DNA of 37,250 nucleotides from an uncultured Bacilli bacterium. GTDB taxonomy: Bacteria > Bacillota_I > Bacilli_A > RF39 > UBA660. This document shows, piece after piece, positions 3,101-30,840 of this stretch. A model generated the notes under the pieces. The model worked only from the letters and a program-made list of their open reading frames with translations. It had not been told where the DNA came from and searched no databases. The number at the start of each line of letters is the position of its first letter. Position 1 is the stretch's first letter. The translations under genes and the position numbers were made by a program. Location of the stretch: positions 1 to 37,250 of the forward strand of contig CANQDI010000002.1 in assembly GCA_947591575.1 (NCBI GenBank), given 5' to 3'.

Positions 3101-3556
3101 TTATTTATCGGTAGAACCAAATCCACCTTTACGAATTCCTTCTGCCCTATCATCATCAACTACTAAAAACTTTTGAAAGATAACTTGTCCAATCACATCG
3201 CCTTTATGAACAATCAACTCTTCATTTTTAAAATTATAATATTGAAAGTAAAAATGACCATCATTACTTTCATTTTCATAGTAATCTGCATCAACGATTC
3301 CAATACTATTGCACATTACGAATCCCTTTTTAGGACCACCACTACGATTTACCAGCATATAGTATTCATCTTCTTGACAATAAGCCTTAAGACCTGTTGG
3401 AATTAAAACTGGTTTTTGTCCAAGTTGAAAAGGTGGTATGATTACATCTTCAGCTGCTTCTATATCATAACCAGCTGAATGTTTTGTTTTTCTAGTTGGA
3501 AGATGAATATCCTTATCTTCCCATCCTTTTGCAATTTCAAATCCTCTTTGTCTCAT
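3101..3556 (-). CDS. dut: dUTP diphosphatase (trimeric dUTPase)
   Basis: 151 aa. Contains the dUTPase motifs AGYDI, GIVDADY and a C-terminal RKGGFGSTDK. Starts 10 nt downstream of the nrdG stop. Confidence 0.9.
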   Translation of the reverse strand: MRQRGFEIAKGWEDKDIHLPTRKTKHSAGYDIEAAEDVIIPPFQLGQKPVLIPTGLKAYCQEDEYYMLVNRSGGPKKGFVMCNSIGIVDADYYENESNDGHFYFQYYNFKNEELIVHKGDVIGQVIFQKFLVVDDDRAEGIRKGGFGSTDK

Positions 3557-3565
3557 AAAATCTCC

Positions 3566-4141
3566 TTAACTATTTAATGTACACGAAACAACCTGTGGTT
3601 CGTTATTTTCTACTGCAAATTGACTATTATCAATATATAGAACAATTTGATCTTGATCTAAACTTTTTTTCACATCAATAATTCTTTGATTGCTACTACC
3701 AACATAGTGAAGTTTATCTTCTTTTAATTTCATAATGAAGCGTCCCTCTAAAATAACATCAATATTTTTGAGAATCTCTTCTAAATTGGCATCTAATTCT
3801 CTTTGAGCCATTAATTCTTCCCAAGTATATCCAGTATAAAGCCAAATTGTTTTATGAGGATAAAGTTGTCTTATATTGGTCACTAAATCACGGATAGTCT
3901 TTCGATTTCCTAAATAAAGTGGATCTCCCCCTGATAAAGTAAGACCACTACACCAATCTTGATCTAATTGCTCGTAAATTTCTTTGATCGTATCATCATC
4001 AAAAGGAACACCATCTTCAGGATCCCAAGTCAGTGCATTTTGGCACCCTGGACATTGATGAGAACAACCACTTACCCAAAGAACAACGCGAAGTCCTTCA
4101 CCATTTAACATATCTGCTTTTGTTATATTATGATATTTCAT
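3566..4141 (-). CDS. nrdG: Anaerobic ribonucleotide reductase activating protein (radical SAM)
   Basis: 191 aa. CX3CX2C cluster (GCSHQCPGCQN). The start abuts the nrdD stop (4141/4142). Confidence 0.9.
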   Translation of the reverse strand: MKYHNITKADMLNGEGLRVVLWVSGCSHQCPGCQNALTWDPEDGVPFDDDTIKEIYEQLDQDWCSGLTLSGGDPLYLGNRKTIRDLVTNIRQLYPHKTIWLYTGYTWEELMAQRELDANLEEILKNIDVILEGRFIMKLKEDKLHYVGSSNQRIIDVKKSLDQDQIVLYIDNSQFAVENNEPQVVSCTLNS

Positions 4142-6346
4142 CTACATTGATTTCCTTTCTGCAATTTCCACCATTTTTGCTCGATTTAATCTAGTATCAC
4201 CGTGAACTCTTGAATAAGAAAGGTAACCATTCATACGATCGATTTTAGTAAGATCAGCACTGCCACATTTTGGACAAACATCCATATCCAATTCTTCATG
4301 TCCACAGACATTGCAGTAAGAAAGGGATAAATTAACACCTTCATAAAATCCTTTTTCCATTGCACGTTCTACATAAGTAATCATTGCTTCTTTATTATAA
4401 TTTAAATTGTAGCGAACATATTGAATTCTTCCACCACGGAATAGATCCCAAAATCTTCCTTCCAAGTCTTGTTTTTGAATACCAGTAATATCCTCCCAAA
4501 CGCCACAGTGAAAACTATTAGAAACATATTCTCTGTCAGAAACACCTTTTACAATACCATATTTTTTCCTAAATTGTTCTACTTGAGTACCACAAAGGCT
4601 TTCAGCTGGCGTACCATAAATAGCATAAAGAATTCCATCTTCTTTTTTGTAATCTTGGATCTTTTTATTAATATATTTCATTACTTCTAAGGCAAATTCT
4701 CCATCTTCAACAAGACTTTTTCCATTATAAAGTTCTTGCAATTCATTAAGAGCCGTAATTCCAAAAGAAGCAGTAGAAGATTTTAACAATGGTTCAATTG
4801 GTTCATTTGGTTTTAAGTGTCCTCCATAGAATCCACCTTCACAATAAGCGAGTGGACTAATAGATGCTTTTTTCTTTGCTAAATAATGGTAAGTACGAAT
4901 ATGAATTTTACGAATCATTTCAAGATAATAATCTAATACTTCATAAAAATCTTTCTGTTCCTCTCTTGCTTTTGCTAAAATCATAGGTAAATTAAGGGAA
5001 ACAGCTCCAATATTAAATCTTCCAATAAATACAGGTTTATCATCTTCATCAGCTGGTTCCATTCCTCCACGTTCAAACCATGGTGACAAGAAAGCACGGC
5101 ATCCCATAGGGCTGACAATTTTTCCATACTTTTTAAACATTTCAGGGACATATCCTTCTCCTGTTAAAGATAAATAGTCTGGATACATTGTTTTGGCACT
5201 ACAATCAAGTGCTGTATCAAATAAATGATACATTTTCTTTCCACGGCCATGAAGATTTTTATCATAAAGAAATACAAGTTTTGGAAACAACGTTGGTTTT
5301 CTAAATCCTGGTTTCCCTTGTCCTTTCATATGGGTATTTAAAATCACTTCAGAGATCATCTGCCCAAAAGGATCTTCTTCATGTCCAAAAGTGAAGGTTA
5401 CAAATGGATAATCGCCCCTACTTGAACCTACACTATTTAATTTATATTCAATTCCTTGGTATCCTTGTTCACATTCACGACGTGTTTTCTTCCAAGCATA
5501 CTCTTCTGCTTTTGTAGGTTCCTCGCCACCAGTAATTTTCATATACTCTTCATAATACTTATTATAACTTTTCTTAGCATAAGGTGTTAAAATCGTATCT
5601 ACTTCAGGAACAGTGAAACCTCCATACTGCATGGCAGCTGTATTAATAATGACATCTCCCATTACATCATAAGCTGTATCAAGACTTTTGGGTTCATTAT
5701 ACCAAAGATTTCCCATTTCAAATCCATCTTTCATCACTGAACCAACGTCGCATAAGCAACAGTTCATTGTATCACGTCTTGCACTCATATCGTGTACATA
5801 GATATATCCATCCTCACAAGCTTCCACTTCAACTTTTGTAAGAAAGAATTTTTTATAAAGTTCTTTATTTAAATTGCCATAAACTAAACTACGTTGTGTT
5901 GATACAAGAGCACTATCTGTATTAGAGTTTTCTTTATCTCCTATATAACTAATTGCCTGTGCTTTTTTATAAACATTATCCAAAATATGAACAAAATCAT
6001 TTTTATAATTACGGTATTCACGATAACTCTTCGCAACAAGCGGATTTACTTGTTCAAGAGCTGCCTCTACACAATTATGAATTTGATTAACCTCCGCATC
6101 ACTCGTTTGATTTTTTAATAAATCAATAACAATGTTTACAACCTCTTCTTTTGCTTCCTGTGTTAAATCAACCATTACTCGCTCAGCACTTTTCTCAATC
6201 GCAGCTTGAATTTTCTCACCATCAAATGGTTGCCTTGTCCCATTCTTCTTAATAATATTAATTTTGGGATTATTATACTTCTTTTTTGGTCTTCCTCTTT
6301 CTATTGTCTTTTCTTCCTTTTTCTCCTTCACATTTGTCTTTGTCAT
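4142..6346 (-). CDS. nrdD: Anaerobic ribonucleoside-triphosphate reductase (class III)
   Basis: 734 aa. N-terminal ATP-cone (IKKNGTRQPFDGEKIQAAIEKS). NCCL and MGCRAFL active-site Cys motifs. C-terminal Zn ribbon (CNVCGHE...CPKCGS). Glycyl-radical motif RMNGYL. Confidence 0.95.
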   Translation of the reverse strand: MTKTNVKEKKEEKTIERGRPKKKYNNPKINIIKKNGTRQPFDGEKIQAAIEKSAERVMVDLTQEAKEEVVNIVIDLLKNQTSDAEVNQIHNCVEAALEQVNPLVAKSYREYRNYKNDFVHILDNVYKKAQAISYIGDKENSNTDSALVSTQRSLVYGNLNKELYKKFFLTKVEVEACEDGYIYVHDMSARRDTMNCCLCDVGSVMKDGFEMGNLWYNEPKSLDTAYDVMGDVIINTAAMQYGGFTVPEVDTILTPYAKKSYNKYYEEYMKITGGEEPTKAEEYAWKKTRRECEQGYQGIEYKLNSVGSSRGDYPFVTFTFGHEEDPFGQMISEVILNTHMKGQGKPGFRKPTLFPKLVFLYDKNLHGRGKKMYHLFDTALDCSAKTMYPDYLSLTGEGYVPEMFKKYGKIVSPMGCRAFLSPWFERGGMEPADEDDKPVFIGRFNIGAVSLNLPMILAKAREEQKDFYEVLDYYLEMIRKIHIRTYHYLAKKKASISPLAYCEGGFYGGHLKPNEPIEPLLKSSTASFGITALNELQELYNGKSLVEDGEFALEVMKYINKKIQDYKKEDGILYAIYGTPAESLCGTQVEQFRKKYGIVKGVSDREYVSNSFHCGVWEDITGIQKQDLEGRFWDLFRGGRIQYVRYNLNYNKEAMITYVERAMEKGFYEGVNLSLSYCNVCGHEELDMDVCPKCGSADLTKIDRMNGYLSYSRVHGDTRLNRAKMVEIAERKSM

Positions 6347-6599
6347 TTTTTAACACCTCTCTCTATTTTTGTGATATTCCAATCATATCTTGTTTTTTTG
6401 TTATTTATTCTACTTTTTACTATTTGTAAACTTTTTTATTTGTTTGGTTTACACTAAAAAGAAGACAAAAAAAACATATGGCTAAAAGAAGAAGAAAAAT
6501 GCTTCTTTTTCCTTATTTTTCAGTCGCTTTTGCTACTACAAAGTGCCATTTTTAAAAATGTTTTTTTTGAGAACTTTTTTGTGTATTATATTTATATTA

Positions 6600-6628
6600 T
6601 TGATTTTTCAATGTTTTTAAAGTATAAT
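6600..6628 (+). promoter_or_regulatory. Sigma-A-type promoter for the NrdD-like paralog
   Basis: TTGATT (6600-6605), a 17 nt spacer, then TATAAT (6623-6628). AGGAGG at 6642-6647 lies 9 nt before the TTG start. Confidence 0.6.
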
Positions 6629-6656
6629 AAAAGAAGAAACAAGGAGGTGTCAATCA

Positions 6657-8744
6657 TTGGAAAAAATGACATTATTTGACACTCTAATCGTTGTGAAGAG
6701 AAGTGGACAACGAACAACCTTTCAAGGTGAAAAAATTGCTATTGCAATTAAAAAGGCCTTTGATAGTGTTGAAAACAACTATAAAGAGGAAGATGCCAAT
6801 AAGGTATATGAAGCTGTTTTAAAAACCATTGAAAAAGAATATATAGATCGTAAAACCATCCAAATTGAAGATATCCAAGATCTTATTGAAATGACACTAC
6901 AGAAAAAAAATTATCAAGATGTTTTTTTGTCATTTAAAACTTATCGTGAACATCGCAATGCTTCTCGAAAAAGTTTTATTACAAAGCAACAACACAAATT
7001 TTTAAAAACAATCGAGACATTAGGATTTAATAAAGAAGAAGAAAATGCTCTATTAAAAAGGAAAAGTCCCAGTCAACTACTAGAAAATTATGGAACAACA
7101 ATTGCATCTGGTTTTACAAAATCTTACTTATTAGATACAAAAATTGTAAGAGCAATTGATAGCGGACTGATTGGCATTTCTCATCTAGAATCCATTGCTT
7201 TAGGAAGTATTGAAAGTATTGAGTTAGATGTAAGTAGACTCTTTAAAGAAAAAATTCTATTAACAACAAAACAAGACTACCTCGTTCAAAATATTGACGA
7301 CTTTTTTGATAGCTTACTTCTTTTAATAAAATCTTGTGCTCACTCTGTTTATGGACAAATACAAATTTCTAACCTAGATTATGATATCGTTCCTTATATT
7401 CTTACTACTTATAAAGAATGTCTACAAGAAGAAATCAATGATTTTTTAGAATTTAGTGGATTTAAAATGTTTCTTAGTGGTGATAGAATAAAAAAGGAAA
7501 TTGATCGCTTAGGAAGTATAAAGGAAAACATTACTTTACTAGATGAACTTTGTTCACAAGAAGAATTATTAGAAATTTCTTTCAAAAGAGCCATACAACT
7601 TGCCAAAGAAAAAACAAATAAGAGGATCCATAAGAGTCTTACTCGATTCCTTATAAACTTAAATTCTATTTATGATAAACTAGAAAACTTTCCTAAAATA
7701 AGCATAGGAATGGGTACTGCTACTCAAGAAGAGGCAAAAATTTTTATGCAAATTTTATTAGAAATTGCAAAACAAGAAGACTATTTGGAACCAACTTATG
7801 TTTTTAAATTAAAGAAAGGAAAAAATATTGAAGAAAATGATCCAAATTATCATTTATTAGAATCTTATCTTCACCTTGCCATTAAAAGTAAAAAATTTTT
7901 ATTTGCCAATTTGGAAGCTAAACAAAATAGAAAATATTATGAGGAAGGTGTTCCGAATAGTGAAATTTGTTATTTTAGCGATGGAAGTAGAGTTGTCGAA
8001 GATTCTACAATACAAGATGCAAGGATTATGGGAGGTAAAGGAAATTTATTTACCTGCTCTATTAATTTACCTCGATTGGGATTTAAAGTGAAAGATATGA
8101 AGAACAAAGAAGAAGCTTTCTTTTCACTCCTTCAACAATCCTTAGAACTCGCAAAAGATACTTTACTATCCTCTTTTGAATTACTTACCAACAAAAAATG
8201 TGAGGAGTTTCCATTTTTATTAGGCCAAAACATTTGGCAAGATGGAAGAAATGTGAAAGAAACAGACCGATTAAGGAAATTATTTAAACATGGTACATTG
8301 TCTATTCATTTTGTAGGTCTCGAGGAATCTTTATCTCTTTTAACGCAAGAGGAAGATAGCTTAAAAAAGGAAAAATTAGGAACCAAAATACTTGAGTTCA
8401 TGCAAGAAAAAGTGATGTCATACTGCATTTTACATAATCTAAACTTTACTTTATCTGCTAAAAAAGATGATTACATTTGTAAAGAATTTAATCAAATTGA
8501 TACAGCTATTTATGGTAAAAACAAAGGAATTACTACAAAAGATGCATACCACAATGGATTTGAAAAAGATGTATTAAGCTGGAAAGAAACATTAGAGATA
8601 GAAGCTAAATATCACTCTTATACGTGGGGTGGACACCTCAGTTGTTTTTCTCTTTCCAAAAAAGATATATCTCAAATAAAAGCAATCTTAAATGACATAG
8701 AAAAAGAAGCTATTGGTGCTTTCTACTTGGAAGCAAAACATTAG
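6657..8744 (+). CDS. ATP-cone plus NrdD-like barrel paralog lacking the Zn-ribbon/glycyl-radical domain
   Basis: 695 aa with a TTG start. ATP-cone is VVKRSGQRTTFQGEKIAIAIKKAF. It is collinear with the adjacent NrdD: NIDDFFDSLLLLIKSCAHSVYGQIQISNLDYDIVPYILTTYKE aligns with SLDTAYDVMGDVIINTAAMQYGGFTVPEVDTILTPYAKKSY, GKGNLFTCSINLPRLG with GRFNIGAVSLNLPMIL, and GTLSIHFVGLEES with STASFGITALNEL. The protein ends exactly where the NrdD Zn ribbon begins. Confidence 0.8.
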   Translation: MEKMTLFDTLIVVKRSGQRTTFQGEKIAIAIKKAFDSVENNYKEEDANKVYEAVLKTIEKEYIDRKTIQIEDIQDLIEMTLQKKNYQDVFLSFKTYREHRNASRKSFITKQQHKFLKTIETLGFNKEEENALLKRKSPSQLLENYGTTIASGFTKSYLLDTKIVRAIDSGLIGISHLESIALGSIESIELDVSRLFKEKILLTTKQDYLVQNIDDFFDSLLLLIKSCAHSVYGQIQISNLDYDIVPYILTTYKECLQEEINDFLEFSGFKMFLSGDRIKKEIDRLGSIKENITLLDELCSQEELLEISFKRAIQLAKEKTNKRIHKSLTRFLINLNSIYDKLENFPKISIGMGTATQEEAKIFMQILLEIAKQEDYLEPTYVFKLKKGKNIEENDPNYHLLESYLHLAIKSKKFLFANLEAKQNRKYYEEGVPNSEICYFSDGSRVVEDSTIQDARIMGGKGNLFTCSINLPRLGFKVKDMKNKEEAFFSLLQQSLELAKDTLLSSFELLTNKKCEEFPFLLGQNIWQDGRNVKETDRLRKLFKHGTLSIHFVGLEESLSLLTQEEDSLKKEKLGTKILEFMQEKVMSYCILHNLNFTLSAKKDDYICKEFNQIDTAIYGKNKGITTKDAYHNGFEKDVLSWKETLEIEAKYHSYTWGGHLSCFSLSKKDISQIKAILNDIEKEAIGAFYLEAKH

Positions 8745-8751
8745 CTTCTTT

Positions 8752-9999
8752 TTATATTTTCTCCTTTTGCACTTTTTTTCGTAGTTTTTTTCGAATGACA
8801 AAGCGATAAATACGAACCAATTTTAAAAAGAAAAAGGTAAAAATCGGTCTTATAATATAATCAAATTCCCCGATAAATTCTAAATACTCTCCTCCAAACT
8901 TTTTCTTAAACTCATGAAGTCCTACTAAAGGATGATCACTTTTGGGTTCTCCAATGGTTCCAAATTCATCAAAAACAGAGGAACCTTTTTCTTTTGAAAT
9001 TTCAATTTGATAATCAAATAAGCGATAGTTCGCATAAGTCATTTTATAGTCCATATCATTTGCTCCATATAAATACCAACTTTTATCACCATAATGCACT
9101 GTAAAATAACTACTGACAACAATCTTATCTTCTTTTCTTTTCTTCTTTTCTTCTTCTAAAAACGAAAGTTCTTTTTGTTTTTTTTCTAAAGAGATAAGAT
9201 TGATTTCTTTCGCAGATTTTTCCTTTTGAATATCTTCTTTTAAAATGGCAATCATTTTAGAAAGAGAAACTTTTGCCAACAATAAAGATACATGATTAGA
9301 AGCTGAAAAGATATCATAAAATTTCTCATAATAATCATCTGGATGAGAAAAGAAATTTTGTCTTTGTTCGGTCAGCTTCATAAGGCGGATAAATTGAGGA
9401 ATATCCTCCTTGGTTCCAATAGAAGGTTCTACTTCAAAATGTTCTGCCTTTTTTATAAAACGTAGGGCTGTTTTAGAGTAACGTTTTCGTATATCTTCTA
9501 TTTCATTTTTTAAATCAATACGAAATGTATAACGAGGTTGAGACGTTTCAAAATATTTGGTAAGAGGTAAATGCTTATATCCTATCTTCTTAAGAAAAGA
9601 AACTAATTGATAATGATTTTCCCCTTCGATACACGTTGCATCTTCTGAAATGGTATGGAGACGAATATCAGGATCAATTTTAAAATAAAGCCCTTTCTGC
9701 TTTTTCACAAACTTTTTTAAAGAAGTTGTAAAAAAAGATAAGCATTCTAAATTTTGATAATCCATGACAAATCCCCTAGGAATATAAAAATAGCAATATC
9801 CAAATGGCAGCGACTTTTTTAAAAGAAGTGCGGTAGCAATCAACGTTTCATTTTCTTTTACACCAACATAAAAAGGTGTATATCCCCTTGATTTTGAAAG
9901 TTCTCCCCATAAAGGAGAAGCAAGGAAATGAGATTTTGTAGGATGATTTTCTACAAAGGATGAAAATTCTTCTAAGTCAACTTGTTCTATAAATTTCAT
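8752..9999 (-). CDS. FemAB-family aminoacyl-tRNA-dependent peptidoglycan peptidyltransferase
   Basis: 415 aa counted from the ATG at 9999 (the ORF-track GTG at 10011 abuts the RBS). Resembles S. aureus FemA along its length (YFYIPRGFVMDY, LYFKIDPDI, central coiled-coil insert, C-terminal FKKKFGGEYLEFIGEFDYI). Confidence 0.85.
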   Translation of the reverse strand: MKFIEQVDLEEFSSFVENHPTKSHFLASPLWGELSKSRGYTPFYVGVKENETLIATALLLKKSLPFGYCYFYIPRGFVMDYQNLECLSFFTTSLKKFVKKQKGLYFKIDPDIRLHTISEDATCIEGENHYQLVSFLKKIGYKHLPLTKYFETSQPRYTFRIDLKNEIEDIRKRYSKTALRFIKKAEHFEVEPSIGTKEDIPQFIRLMKLTEQRQNFFSHPDDYYEKFYDIFSASNHVSLLLAKVSLSKMIAILKEDIQKEKSAKEINLISLEKKQKELSFLEEEKKKRKEDKIVVSSYFTVHYGDKSWYLYGANDMDYKMTYANYRLFDYQIEISKEKGSSVFDEFGTIGEPKSDHPLVGLHEFKKKFGGEYLEFIGEFDYIIRPIFTFFFLKLVRIYRFVIRKKLRKKVQKEKI

Positions 10000-10028
10000 A
10001 TTCTTATACACTTCCTTTGATTATTGTT

Positions 10029-10117: not shown

Positions 10118-10147
10118 AAAAATAGATAGAATAAAGAGGTGACTTTT

Positions 10148-11437
10148 ATGCTTGTTGAATTAAAAAAGATAGAATTTGATACATTTGCATCTACCCATAT
10201 TCATAATAGCTTTCAGCAAAATTCTTATTGGGCAAAATTCATGGAAGGAGATGGATGGCATAGTTATTTTGTAGGATATAAGGATAACAATCAAATCATT
10301 GCTGCCACTTTGCTTCTTTCAAAAAATACCCCTCTTCTTAAAAAACGGTATTTTTATGCCCCTCGTGGTTTTCTAATCGATTATAATAATACAGAGCTTG
10401 TTCAATCCTTTACAAAAGACGTCGTACAATTTGTCAAACAAAAAAAAGGAATTTATTTAAAAATAGATCCTTATATACCTTGGGTAGAGCGAAATAAAGA
10501 CGGAGAATTAATAGAAGGAGGAAAAGATAATAGCCGTATTGTCAATATGTTAGAAAAAATAGGATTTGTTCATGTTGGCAATGATTTTAAAAGGAATATG
10601 GTGCAACCTCGTTGGTTATATGCAATTGATACAAGAGGAAAAACCATCGAAGATTTAGAAAGTGAAATGCATGATAAAACAAGACAGATCATTCATAGAA
10701 ATGAGCGAGAAGGAATTGCATTTCGTTTTCTTGAAGAGGAAGAGATACCACAATTTGTAGATATCATGAAAGAAACCAGTGATAAATATCATACGCTTGA
10801 ATATACAAAGCAATATTATGAAGATTTTATGCATTGTTTTCCAAAAGAAAATATTAAAATGGCAGTAGTTGAACTTCATCCAAAAGAAGCCATTCAAAAT
10901 ATCGAAAATCAATTAAAAGAACTAAAACAAAGTTATTATGATCGGGCATTTAAAAAAGAAGAAGTGCTCCACATGAATGAATCTACTTTTGAAAAGAAAG
11001 AAAGAGAACAAGAAGAAATGATTGCACGATTAGAAGAAAAACAAAAAAACTATGAAGATATTTTACAAGAAAAAGGAGAAAAGATTCTATTAGGTGGTTA
11101 TTTTATCATTCTATATGGAAATGAAGTCATTGCTCTACACGGAGGTATTTATGAAGAATGGAAAAAACTAGATGCTGCCGTAACCTTACATTATGAGATG
11201 TTAAAGTATACCAAAGAACATCATTATGAACTATATAATTTATATGAAATATCAGGAGATTTTCGAGAAAATAGTCCTATGTATGGAAGCTTTTTATTCA
11301 AAAGAAACTTTGGAGGAGAAGTCGTTGAATTAATTGGTGAATTTGATTACATCATTGATTTAACTGCCTATTCTTTTCTTAAATACTTCTTTCCATCCTA
11401 TTATGGAATTAAAGTCATTCGAAAAGAAAAAGTATAA
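10148..11437 (+). CDS. FemAB-family aminoacyl-tRNA-dependent peptidoglycan peptidyltransferase (second paralog)
   Basis: 429 aa counted from the ATG at 10148 (GAGGTG RBS at 10136-10141). Motifs YFYAPRGFLIDY, IYLKIDPYI, a coiled-coil insert, and FKRNFGGEVVELIGEFDYI. Confidence 0.85.
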   Translation: MLVELKKIEFDTFASTHIHNSFQQNSYWAKFMEGDGWHSYFVGYKDNNQIIAATLLLSKNTPLLKKRYFYAPRGFLIDYNNTELVQSFTKDVVQFVKQKKGIYLKIDPYIPWVERNKDGELIEGGKDNSRIVNMLEKIGFVHVGNDFKRNMVQPRWLYAIDTRGKTIEDLESEMHDKTRQIIHRNEREGIAFRFLEEEEIPQFVDIMKETSDKYHTLEYTKQYYEDFMHCFPKENIKMAVVELHPKEAIQNIENQLKELKQSYYDRAFKKEEVLHMNESTFEKKEREQEEMIARLEEKQKNYEDILQEKGEKILLGGYFIILYGNEVIALHGGIYEEWKKLDAAVTLHYEMLKYTKEHHYELYNLYEISGDFRENSPMYGSFLFKRNFGGEVVELIGEFDYIIDLTAYSFLKYFFPSYYGIKVIRKEKV

Positions 11438-11699: not shown

Positions 11700-14516
11700 T
11701 TACTTTACAACAATATTACAGATTCTTCCTTTAATTAAAATAATTTTCACAATCTGTTTTCCTTCAATATGTCTTTTCACATTTTCTTCTTGTAAAGCTT
11801 TTTCTTCGATCTGACGTTCTGTATCTTCTAGATGAACTTTAATTGTAGCTCGAACTTTACCATTGACCTGTACAGCAATTTCTTTTTCCTCTTCTACTAA
11901 ATACTTTTCATCATATTGAGGCCATTTTTGATAAGCGATTGTCTCATTATGACCCAATATTTGCCACATTTCTTCCCCTACATGAGGAATGATACAACTA
12001 ATCATTTTGATAAACCCTTCTGCATATTCTCTTGGGCAATGACCTATACGGTAACATTCATTCACAAAAATCATCATTTGACTAATAGCTGTATTAAAAC
12101 CTAAATTCTCATAGTCATCTGTTACCTTCTTAACAGTTTGATGATATATTTTGGTAAGATGACCATCATTATCATCTACAATATGATCTACATTTGTAAA
12201 AAACCTCCATACACGTTCGATAAATCGTTTGGCTCCTTCTACTCCACTAGCACTCCAAGGTTTAGAGGCTTCAATTGGACCCATAAACATTTCATAAAGA
12301 CGCAAGGTGTCTGCACCATAATCTCGCGCAATATCTTTAGGATCAATAGCATATTCTGGGTATCTCTTTCCCATTTTAATACCGTTTTCACCTAAAATCA
12401 TTCCTTGGTGAACCAACTTTTTAAATGGTTCTTTTACAGGAGATAATCCTTTATCATATAAATAACGATTCCAAATACGAGCGTACATTAAATGCCCAAC
12501 TGCGTGTTCTGGTCCTCCCATGTAAAGATCTACTGGAAGCCAATGTTTAGCAAGTTCTGGATCACAAAACATTGTTTCATTTTTAGGATCAATATAACGG
12601 AAATAATACCAACTAGATCCAGCACTTCCAGGCATTGTTGAAGTTTCCCTAAACCCTTTTCTACCATCTTTTGTAGTATATTTTTTCCATTCCGTTGCAT
12701 TTTCAAGTGGTGCTTTTCCATTATGTCCCTTATAGTCCTCCAATTCTGGTAAGATAAGAGGTAACTCTTCATCTTCTAAAACATAGTCTTCTCCATCTTC
12801 TAGATGAACGATTGGAACAGGTTCACCCCAATATCTCTGGCGAGCAAAAATCCATTCTCTAAATTTATAATTGACCTTACGACTTCCACAATGATGTTCT
12901 TCAAGCCACTTAATCATCGTATCAATTGCTTCCTGCTTATTCATCCCGTTTAAAAATTCTGAATTGATATGAACTCCATCTCCAACCATAGCACCAGGAT
13001 GCTTAGCATATTGATATGTTTTATTGTGCAAAGGATCTTTTATTTCTTCTAGTGTTTTCTCATCCACCCACTCAATCGTAAACTCTTCATCATCTTCTAA
13101 TTCTTTTTCATCTTGAATTTCATCCTTTAAATAGAATAAAAATCCTGTACTCTCAATATGAAAATATTTATCCTTATTATAAGCATAATAGTGGTGATTA
13201 ATTTTTGGAAGTTCTGCTTCTAAGGTTAAATGTACATATCCTGTTTCTTCCTTAATCTCGCGAAGTGCACAAGAAAGGGCATCTTCCTTCTCTTTTCTTG
13301 TTCCGCCAATAAATAAACGTCCCCCTTTATCATGCCAATTCAGTGTTAAATATTTTTTTGTTTTTGGATTATAAACAACAGCAACAATCGATTGTTTTTC
13401 AAATTCATTTTCATGAGGTGTTCCTGTTACTTCTTCTAAAACTTGAATAATTGGAATATTAAATTTCTTGGCAAACTCATAGTCTCTTTCATCATGAGCA
13501 GGTACTGCCATAATGGCTCCTGTTCCATAACTTGCTAAAACATAATCACTAATATAAATAGGGATTTCTTGTTGATTAACAGGATTAATGGCATAAGCTC
13601 CTGTAAAGACCCCTGTTTTTTCTTTATTGAGTTCTGTTCGTTCTAAATCACTTTTAGAAGCACAAATGGCTTGGTATTTTTTGACTTCTTCTTTATGCTC
13701 TTCACTTGTAATCAAATTCACATATTCATGTTCTGGAGCAAGCACACAATAAGTTGCACCAAAAAGCGTGTCACAACGTGTTGTGAAAACGGTAAATTCT
13801 TTATCATAGCCTTTTATTTGAAAAGTTACATGTGCACCAATTGATTTTCCAATCCAATTTCGTTGCATTTCTTTAGTTGATTCTGGCCAATCAATTTCAT
13901 CTAAACCTTCCAATAATTTTTCAGCAAAAGCAGGTTGATCAATACAAAGCTGTTTCATATTTTTACGAACAACTGGATACCCACCACGTTCTGATTTTCC
14001 ATCAATTACTTCATCATTAGAAAGAACTGTTCCTAGTTTTTCACACCAATTGACAGGCATATCTATATATTTTGCATAACCATCTTCATAAAGTCTTTTG
14101 AATATCCATTGAGTCCAGTGATAATAGGTAGGATCACTTGTAGATACCATTTTATCCCAATCATAATCAAATCCTAATGTATTTAATTGTTCACTAAAAT
14201 AAGCAATATTCTTTTCTGTAAATCCATTGGGATGATTTCCTGTTTGTACTGCATATTGTTCTGCTGGAAGACCAAATGAATCATATCCCATAGGATGAAG
14301 GACATTATAACCTTGCATTCTTTTCATACGAGAAACAATATCTGTTGCCGTATACCCTTCTACATGTCCTGCATGAAGACCTACTCCACTTGGATAAGGA
14401 AACATATCTAAAACATAATATTTTGGCTTACTAAAATCCCAAACATCTGTCTTAAAAGTTTGATGCTCTTTCCAATATTTTTGCCATTTTTTTTCAATTT
14501 CTCTAAATGGATACAT
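11700..14516 (-). CDS. leuS: Leucyl-tRNA synthetase carrying an internal Nudix-domain insertion
   Basis: 938 aa. HIGH motif is HAGH. CP1 editing-domain motifs are [12 protein letters not shown] and [19 protein letters not shown]. The KMSKS-equivalent is KMGKR (12363-12377). About 130 residues longer than typical bacterial LeuRS because of an insert at about aa 366-508. Confidence 0.95.
12993..13421 (-). other. Nudix hydrolase domain nested within LeuRS (about aa 366-508)
   Basis: [24 protein letters not shown] (nt 13304-13236) fits the Nudix box G-x5-E-x7-R-E-U-x-E-E-x-G-U at every position. The flanking beta-strand-like segments ([34 protein letters not shown]) are consistent with a full Nudix fold. 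Confidence 0.8.
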
Positions 14517-30721: not shown

Positions 30722-30840
30722 TTGTAAATCCTCCCTTCGCCTATATCGAGTATAGACTTGCTCCGTGCGAATAACCCGATAACCAATTAACAACTTAACC
30801 TGGTGTATCGGCAACCTCTCACATCTAAGCAGTCACACGT
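30722..30840 (-). promoter_or_regulatory. GC-enriched 5' leader of the S10 operon (candidate structured autoregulatory RNA)
   Basis: About 115 nt between the predicted promoter and the rpsJ ATG, visibly more GC-rich than its surroundings. It has a hairpin CCGATA-CA-CCAG...TTGG-T-TATCGG and a TTCGC...GCGAA helix abutting the SD. Confidence 0.35.

Follow-up and report, generated by a model that had tools for sequence, protein, structure and literature searches.

A predicted catalytically dead NrdD homolog that retains its ATP-cone is encoded beside class III ribonucleotide reductase genes in an uncultured Bacilli bacterium

Contig CANQDI010000002.1 of an uncultured Bacilli bacterium (RF39, UBA660; assembly GCA_947591575.1) was analysed from position 1 to 37,250, and this whole stretch of 37,250 nucleotides is hereafter called the window. 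An open reading frame (ORF) located at 6657-8744 of its plus strand, with a TTG start and a TAG stop, encodes a protein of 695 amino acids that is related to NrdD, the catalytic subunit of class III ribonucleotide reductase (RNR). The N-termini of the orthologs have the sequence MEK(S/M)TLFD and begin at the position of this TTG codon. The ORF and its parts are as follows.

6657-8744, plus strand: whole ORF, 695 amino acids, an ATP-cone and an NrdD barrel predicted to be catalytically dead
6687-6959, plus strand: ATP-cone, residues 11-101, from Pfam and alignment; its nucleotide-binding helix extends to R104
6960-7046, plus strand: connector, residues 102-130, with the basic helix KQQHKFLK at residues 110-117 (nucleotides 6984-7007)
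7047-8741, plus strand: predicted dead alpha/beta barrel, residues 131-695, from the alignment and the AlphaFold2 model

A preliminary description of this DNA, made from the sequence without database searches, had called for profile searches and had proposed that the protein is a radical-dead homolog of NrdD. Pfam detects an ATP-cone at residues 11-101 (PF03477, 49.8 bits, E-value 5e-13, above the gathering cutoff of 25.8) and NRDD at residues 129-688 (PF13597, 192 bits, profile positions 1-501 of 562), the C-terminal 60 positions of the NRDD profile being absent from the ORF. The top NCBIfam model is PRK07111, but its score of 345.5 bits is below the equivalog cutoff of 764, and that of TIGR02487 (178.8) is likewise below its cutoff of 326. 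The AlphaFold2 model of the protein (predicted local distance difference test score 82.8) has the NrdD fold, and its best Foldseek matches are the NrdDs of Prevotella copri, Streptococcus thermophilus and phage T4 (structures 8P2C, 9D3X and 1H79; E-values down to 2e-37; template modelling (TM) scores 0.65-0.86). Judged from this model, the protein is an NrdD alpha/beta barrel in its fold.

The protein was aligned with its active relatives and with the NrdD encoded next to it in the window. The functional residues were taken from P. copri NrdD, in which they are the thiyl-radical cysteine Cys416, the beta-A cysteine Cys171, the Glu581 loop with the motif TPAE, and Gly711 (10.1101/2023.06.20.545753). 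When the catalytic residues are scored in this way, as had been suggested, Asn463, located after the finger loop (GKGNL), is the sole residue of these motifs that is kept. The radical-initiating Cys416 is replaced by D442 (nucleotides 7980-7982), with YMGCRTRV aligned to YFSDGSRV, and Cys171 is replaced by S187, with MGTTTCCQ aligned to LGSIESIE. The losses of the cysteines of the NrdD motif HDMS..NCCLCDV, which aligns with SHLE..SIESIELDV, and of GTPAES, which aligns with AKKDDY, had both been recognized previously and are confirmed by this alignment. The TPAE loop, which is ATPAEG in active relatives, is thus AKKDDY in the protein (K602-D605, KKDD), and the HxHD triphosphate motif IHIHD is IGISH (G173, S175 and H176). 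The motif GFSTGHG..REP of the specificity-site hairpin is degenerate, being KILLTTKQDYLV at residues 199-210, and the NxN active-site flap, which follows the connector helix in active NrdDs, is deleted in the alignment. The cysteine of EICYF (C438) had been suggested to correspond to the thiyl cysteine, but the true position is D442, four residues downstream. C438 as a displaced thiyl cysteine is ruled out by the alignment and by its lack of conservation, as many family members have V, I or S at this position.

The C-terminal part of the machinery is absent as well. The protein ends with ...AIGAFYLEAKH, exactly at the point where its relatives run on into the CxxC ribbon and the RxxGY glycyl-radical loop, in agreement with the truncation described previously. 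The protein has no RxxGY loop, the only one in the window being that of the real NrdD, and it has no CxxC motif in its last 110 residues, the region of the four-cysteine Zn ribbon being absent in the alignment. A search of the whole window with tblastn gives a glycyl-radical peptide or ribbon only at the C-terminus of the real NrdD, and none encoded separately that would have compensated for these losses. The next gene, which encodes a FemAB protein, is convergent and ends at 8752, only 7 nucleotides past the stop codon, as had been noted, and no tail ORF follows. A frameshift or a missing tail is rejected, because the proteins of the family share one endpoint, the convergent gene is so close and no remnant of the glycyl-radical loop is present. 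These results indicate that the protein cannot be a glycyl-radical reductase.

The protein shows only 18% identity to the adjacent NrdD in the alignment, whereas the nearest active proteins are PRK07111-type NrdDs, with approximately 37% identity. On these comparisons the protein is a descendant of the PRK07111-type branch and not a paralog of the neighbouring NrdD, as it had been called; a recent duplication of the latter is ruled out by the 18% identity and by the different best NCBIfam subfamily. The nearest solved structure is that of P. copri NrdD (8P23/8P28). Active PRK07111-type NrdDs share with the protein an N-terminal ATP-cone with the same nucleotide-binding residues, a connector helix with the motif KQQHKF[LV]KA and a ten-stranded barrel (TM up to 0.86, approximately 37% identity). 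In contrast, the protein lacks their glycyl-radical domain, Zn ribbon, thiyl and beta-A cysteines, NxN, HxHD and TPAE, its specificity-site hairpin is degenerate and its score is below half of the equivalog cutoff.

The PRK07111-type branch includes full-length enzymes of 778-797 amino acids with RIRRITGYL, and also an abundant form of 757-770 amino acids that has a cysteine-rich tail but no RxxGY. The possibility that the latter form represents a larger "radical-less" family is rejected, because an ORF for a 55-amino-acid glycyl-radical peptide (sequence MKADEKKVGEGVKFERIRRITGYLVGT...) and then NrdG are encoded directly downstream. From its sequence this form is an active, split NrdD, distinct from the window ORF. 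Split NrdD of gut Clostridia and Bacilli resembles the window protein in that it belongs to the same branch and its large subunit has no RxxGY loop, but it keeps both catalytic cysteines, the substrate motifs, the Zn ribbon, the downstream glycyl-radical peptide (GEGVKFERIRRITGYLVGT...) and NrdG, none of which the window ORF has. Split class III RNR is found in locus L008 (8001-10301 and 10314-10481), in L009 and in many of the loci L019-L072, and is very abundant in gut metagenomes. All catalytic residues are kept in it, a degenerate remnant of the glycyl-radical loop, ERIKNASLNS, is located near the end of the large subunit, and the cysteine-rich tail contains ..CGGR, CCGR, NNCK and C.C; the real loop is on the 55-amino-acid ORF.

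The protein belongs to a family. A word-indexed search gives 20 short relatives of 660-715 amino acids, with 37-66% identity, and a profile search of 1.84 billion cluster representatives ranks at the top approximately 90 clusters at 50% identity, with lengths of 590-720 amino acids, all of which lack the thiyl cysteine, the beta-A cysteine, TPAE, the ribbon and the glycyl-radical loop. In a rough neighbour-joining tree, 86 of the 95 dead sequences form one pure clade, and the other nine, P0124 and eight more sequences outside the main clade, are not resolved. P0124 (730 amino acids), found in the search of representatives, has lost the thiyl and beta-A cysteines, but keeps the three scored cysteines of the Zn ribbon and has Tyr where the Gly would be. 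This sequence may represent a transitional state, or an inactivation that took place a second time, independently. The hosts from which the contigs of the family originate include rabbit, Hadza and other humans, goat and chicken. The labels of these contigs include "Clostridium sp. CAG:524/451/762", Candidatus Onthousia, and metagenome-assembled genomes (MAGs) labelled Mollicutes, Mycoplasmatota or Erysipelotrichaceae. The family is large and apparently undescribed, and resides in uncultured gut Bacilli.

Between the same pairs of genomes, the protein is 39-66% identical, whereas NrdD is 87-95% and NrdG 66-83% identical, and the protein therefore evolves much faster than its partner NrdD. The ratio of nonsynonymous to synonymous substitution rates (dN/dS) is nevertheless 0.06-0.10 in the unsaturated comparisons (dS 0.16-0.36), as compared to 0.05-0.08 for NrdG and 0.01-0.03 for NrdD. 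By this measure the gene is under strong purifying selection, far from neutrality, and is not decaying. It is also preceded by the following signals.

6600-6649, plus strand: promoter TTGATT (6600-6605), spacer of 17, TATAAT (6623-6628), and ribosome-binding site (RBS) AAGGAGGTG (6641-6649)

This near-consensus promoter and RBS had been noted previously. No variation is seen in the -35 and -10 hexamers among 14 diverged loci that have the gene arrangement of the window (type 1, described below), and a purine-rich RBS is present in all of them. These signals suggest that the gene is probably expressed. The absence of all catalytic machinery and the faster evolution than that of the adjacent NrdD would be expected if the gene were a pseudogene in decay, or a full-length nrdD distorted by an assembly or frameshift error. 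However, the low dN/dS, the intact ORFs with one common endpoint in approximately 90 clusters and 43 distinct loci, the promoter and RBS kept across 14 lineages, the convergent gene that leaves no room for a tail and the lack of any glycyl-radical coding remnant in the window contradict this explanation, which we regard as already refuted.

The part of the protein that is most conserved in the family is the ATP-cone. In P. copri NrdD, the cone residues Lys7, Arg8, Tyr83, Arg87 and Arg91 contact two bound ATP or dATP molecules (10.1101/2023.06.20.545753). All five are kept in the protein, as K14, R15, Y96, R100 and R104, and they are conserved at 97-100% among 129 family members. Thus, the retention of an ATP-cone, proposed previously, is supported by both the Pfam score and these residues, and the cone is predicted to bind ATP/dATP. 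It is not more canonical than that of NrdD itself, as had been thought, because it scores 49.8 bits with the Pfam profile, as compared to 59.0 bits for the cone of NrdD. Two further segments hardly vary in the family, namely the "roof" of the cone, KRSGQRT, and the basic helix of the connector, KQQHKFLK. Among the 129 members the mean frequency of the top residue is 0.66 in the cone, 0.57 in the connector and 0.32-0.51 in the barrel. Conservation reaches at least 85% at 77 positions, of which 51 are located within residues 12-120. For the cone, the mean pairwise identity is 0.52 within the dead family and 0.33 among 16 active relatives, whereas for the barrel it is 0.28 and 0.51, respectively. 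This result indicates that the constraint has moved from the barrel to the cone.

The gene is located next to genes for class III RNR, which are encoded on the opposite strand.

4142-6346, minus strand: active partner NrdD, 734 amino acids (TIGR02487, 557 bits, profile positions 1-581 of 581)
3566-4141, minus strand: NrdG activase, a radical SAM protein, from Pfam and NCBIfam
3101-3556, minus strand: dUTPase (dut), last gene of the nrdD-nrdG-dut unit, from Pfam and NCBIfam

The partner NrdD contains an ATP-cone, the MGCR thiyl loop, NCC, GTPAES, two CxxC motifs and RMNGYL. A survey of co-occurrence with nrdD and nrdG had been recommended, and active nrdD is found to adjoin the gene in 41 of 43 distinct loci, in 27 of them divergently and in 14 on the same strand. 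Five arrangements, or partner types, are distinguished. In type 1, which is that of the window, the gene diverges from nrdD-nrdG(-dut) with an intergenic region of approximately 300-312 bp in most loci, and the nrdD-nrdG-dut unit is kept opposite the gene. In type 2 (L002 and L073), it diverges from NrdG and a different NrdD of 697-700 amino acids, and in type 3 (L040 and L067), from nrdG and an NrdD of approximately 790 amino acids with a C-terminal thioredoxin/glutaredoxin domain. In type 4 (13 loci), the gene is followed on the same strand, after approximately 700 bp, by a thioredoxin-fused NrdD; in L085 these 700 bp contain a radical-SAM nrdG-like gene of 228 amino acids. In type 5 (L053), the gene is located 20 bp upstream of a full-length PRK07111-type NrdD and NrdG. 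ATP-cones are present in all partner NrdD types. The partners of types 3 and 4 are thus ATP-cone NrdDs with C-terminal thioredoxin/glutaredoxin, with lengths of 775-794 amino acids (L040 2580-4955, minus strand; L075 4587-6920, plus strand; L074-L090).

The tandem in L053 is probably the ancestral state. We infer that the family originated by duplication of a PRK07111-type NrdD, that this tandem survives in L053, and that the active partner subsequently gave way to others in different lineages. The linkage to class III RNR outlives these repeated replacements of the partner, which speaks for a functional connection that requires no particular barrel-barrel interface. This bears on the possibility that the dead subunit is an obligate partner of one active NrdD monomer, with which it would pair through the barrel interface, so that half-of-sites behaviour is hard-wired. 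In the dimer of P. copri NrdD, activity is confined to one monomer at any given time (10.1101/2023.06.20.545753), the barrel fold of the protein is full-length, and the tandem with its closest active relative in L053 would have permitted a dimer of this kind when the family arose. However, the partner NrdD in the window is only 18% identical to the protein, the type of partner differs by lineage and includes thioredoxin/glutaredoxin-fused ones, the specificity-site hairpin motif, which lies at the dimer interface, is degenerate, and the rate of evolution of the barrel is four to five times that of NrdD. Heterodimers through the barrel, one of the roles considered in the preliminary description, are therefore quite unlikely.

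The same linkage is relevant to a further possibility, that the barrel has gained a new, non-radical activity or a ligand unrelated to the control of RNR. The remodelled finger loop is invariant in the close subfamily of 21 sequences (Y439, G443, R445, D449 and GGKG at 459-462), and the whole ORF is under purifying selection, as would be expected for a new enzyme or ligand-binding protein. However, the finger-loop residues are not conserved across the 129 members, the conserved barrel positions N470, R473, G546, E557, N596 and D615 are shared with active NrdDs and may be inherited features of the fold, and the near-universal linkage to nrdD and nrdG points to a role related to RNR. Recruitment to a different chemistry, which had also been suggested, is disfavoured because the barrel has no new conserved polar cluster among the 129 members, and we consider such a role very improbable.

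The gene and nrdD share a divergent intergenic region.

6347-6656, no strand assigned: shared divergent intergenic region, 310 bp (300-312 bp in most type-1 loci)

A -10-like box of nrdD, TATGAT/TATAAT, is located approximately 40 nucleotides upstream of nrdD in the 14 diverged type-1 loci. A palindrome, TTTACTATTTGTAAA (6416-6430; TTTAC-N5-GTAAA), is located upstream of this box and is present in 8 of the 14 loci. In addition, the region in the window contains a 28-nucleotide inverted repeat (6450-6477 and 6558-6585), of which the cores AAAAAAACAT and ATGTTTTTTT, approximately 80 nucleotides apart, are invariant in the 14 loci. The intergenic region has no Rfam match at the gathering threshold, and no covariation is seen between the variable cores of the inverted repeat, of which the invariant cores are A/T-tracts. 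The elements are therefore read as acting at the DNA level, either as sites for a factor or as phased A-tracts, and not as an RNA; the repeat looks like a symmetry of the DNA rather than a stem. NrdR boxes, which are reported at nrdDG of Listeria and Streptococcus, are not found in the 14 intergenic regions, the best matches having 4-6 mismatches out of 16. A small ATP-cone ORF, as for the nrdR gene, is not seen in the fetched loci, but this result is uninformative because these loci span only a few kb. A near-consensus, promoter-like sequence on the minus strand, TTGACA-18-TATTAT (window 6653-6624, 11 of 12 matches), overlaps the -10 box and RBS of the gene for the dead homolog. If this site is used, nrdD would have a leader of approximately 280 nucleotides that spans the whole intergenic region.

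These features raise the possibility that the protein is a regulator of expression analogous to NrdR, in which the cone senses ATP/dATP and the protein controls nrdDG and its own gene at the level of transcription or translation, with the dead barrel or the basic connector helix in place of the Zn ribbon. The head-to-head layout with an intergenic region conserved in length (approximately 300-310 bp) is typical of regulator-target pairs. The invariant symmetric elements AAAAAAACAT ... ATGTTTTTTT and the palindrome could be the sites of such a regulator, the lack of NrdR boxes upstream of nrdD in the 14 lineages, as compared to nrdDG of Listeria and Streptococcus, is consistent with it, and so are the 14 loci in which the gene precedes nrdG and nrdD in the same orientation and the basic, conserved nature of the connector KQQHKFLK. 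However, Pfam and NCBIfam give only the ATP-cone and NRDD, and no recognisable DNA- or RNA-binding domain. Moreover, the conserved DNA elements are confined to type-1 loci, where some other factor might equally well bind them, and the variable cores of the inverted repeat give no covariation. Control of expression by the protein is therefore unlikely.

Several features of the region are recorded here in their own right. Directly downstream of the gene, two FemAB-family peptidyltransferase genes are located divergently (8752-10011, minus strand, and 10139-11437, plus strand), and this pair is syntenic in L001. The leucyl-tRNA synthetase encoded at 11700-14516 of the minus strand (938 amino acids) contains a NUDIX hydrolase domain after the editing domain (residues 376-495, PF00293, 43 bits). 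A NUDIX-inserted leucyl-tRNA synthetase is also encoded in L001 (8140-10959, minus strand), where the dead homolog is 61% identical to that of the window. An S10-Clostridia ribosomal protein leader (30737-30835, minus strand; RF03136, 39.7 bits) is the only Rfam match of the window at the gathering threshold.

We are highly confident that the protein is a selected pseudoenzyme functionally linked to class III RNR. The more specific reading that we favour, to which we give an even chance, is that of an ATP/dATP sensor that modulates in trans the class III RNR encoded beside it, for which nucleotide-dependent association of the cone with NrdD is the most plausible mode of action. The preliminary description had proposed a regulatory or sensor role; the loss of catalytic residues, the retained cone, the selection and the linkage to active nrdDG all speak for such a putative role. 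In active NrdDs, dATP drives the association of cones, into parallel dimers in S. thermophilus NrdD, and into antiparallel dimers and tetramers in P. copri NrdD (10.1101/2023.06.20.545753). The associated cones prevent the connector and the NxN flap from entering the active site, an effect that is reversed by ATP. The protein may have been retained for its N-terminal ATP-cone and connector helix, carried on an inert barrel scaffold, and its cone would read the ATP/dATP ratio. A nucleotide-dependent cone-cone or cone-core association with NrdD would be the most likely route of its action, and would resemble the dATP-induced dimers and tetramers of cones that switch off active NrdDs by keeping the connector and the flap from the active site. 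The outcome would be a tuned feedback inhibition of the neighbouring NrdD by dATP.

Several points weigh against the modulation of RNR in trans. The binding of nucleotides, the contact between the two proteins and the effect on RNR are all deduced from sequence. The partner NrdDs have cones of their own, and no helper takes part in the regulation of the two solved homologs, so that a cone acting in trans is not obviously needed. The geometries of cone-cone association differ between these two NrdDs, and an interaction of the cone that does not depend on the identity of the partner is therefore not guaranteed. The fast-evolving barrel is kept at full length, which a pure function of the cone leaves unexplained. 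Finally, nrdD is not found in the available flanks of L029 and L049.

The protein may be compared with NrdR, which is also non-catalytic, has as its functional module an ATP-cone that reads ATP/dATP, as is predicted for the protein, and is dedicated to the control of RNR. However, NrdR has approximately 150 amino acids and binds paired 16-bp NrdR boxes by its Zn ribbon, whereas the protein has 695 amino acids, no ribbon and a 560-amino-acid dead barrel, and its intergenic region, unlike NrdR-controlled nrd genes, has no NrdR boxes. Dead relatives of RNR subunits are known for class I. Yeast Rnr4 is an R2-like subunit that lacks the iron ligands and partners Rnr2, and M45/UL45 of beta-herpesviruses are catalytically dead R1 homologs. 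Like the protein, they are derived from RNR, have lost catalytic residues and are retained by selection. However, they come from class I subunits of eukaryotes and viruses, whereas the protein comes from a bacterial class III catalytic subunit and retains the allosteric activity domain. A description of NrdD paralogs that lack the glycyl radical or the cysteines is not found in the literature searched, in which subscription journals are under-represented, and a comprehensive RNR phylogeny preprint contains no mention of dead NrdD paralogs. As compared to the known class I dead paralogs and NrdR, a dead class III catalytic subunit with a retained activity site thus appears to be new.

P0014, a protein of the family, is named "anaerobic ribonucleoside-triphosphate reductase" in NCBI, and if other members also carry this name, automated counting overestimates the number of RNR genes in these MAGs. 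Judging from the loci examined, class III RNR appears to be the RNR that these anaerobic gut bacteria encode, and its control by the ATP-cone has been explained structurally only in 2023-2025. The protein is a natural case in which the chemistry has been discarded while the cone and connector have been kept and tightened. It sets the regulatory module apart from catalysis, and suggests an ability of cones to work in trans. Somewhat more tentatively, the dead-reductase family may represent a new trans-acting layer of allosteric control, which switches the neighbouring reductase or its operon on or off and might replace NrdR in these gut Bacilli with reduced genomes. If the protein regulates NrdD or nrdDG, it would be a new regulatory component of deoxynucleoside triphosphate homeostasis, and a potential narrow-spectrum target in uncultured gut Bacilli.

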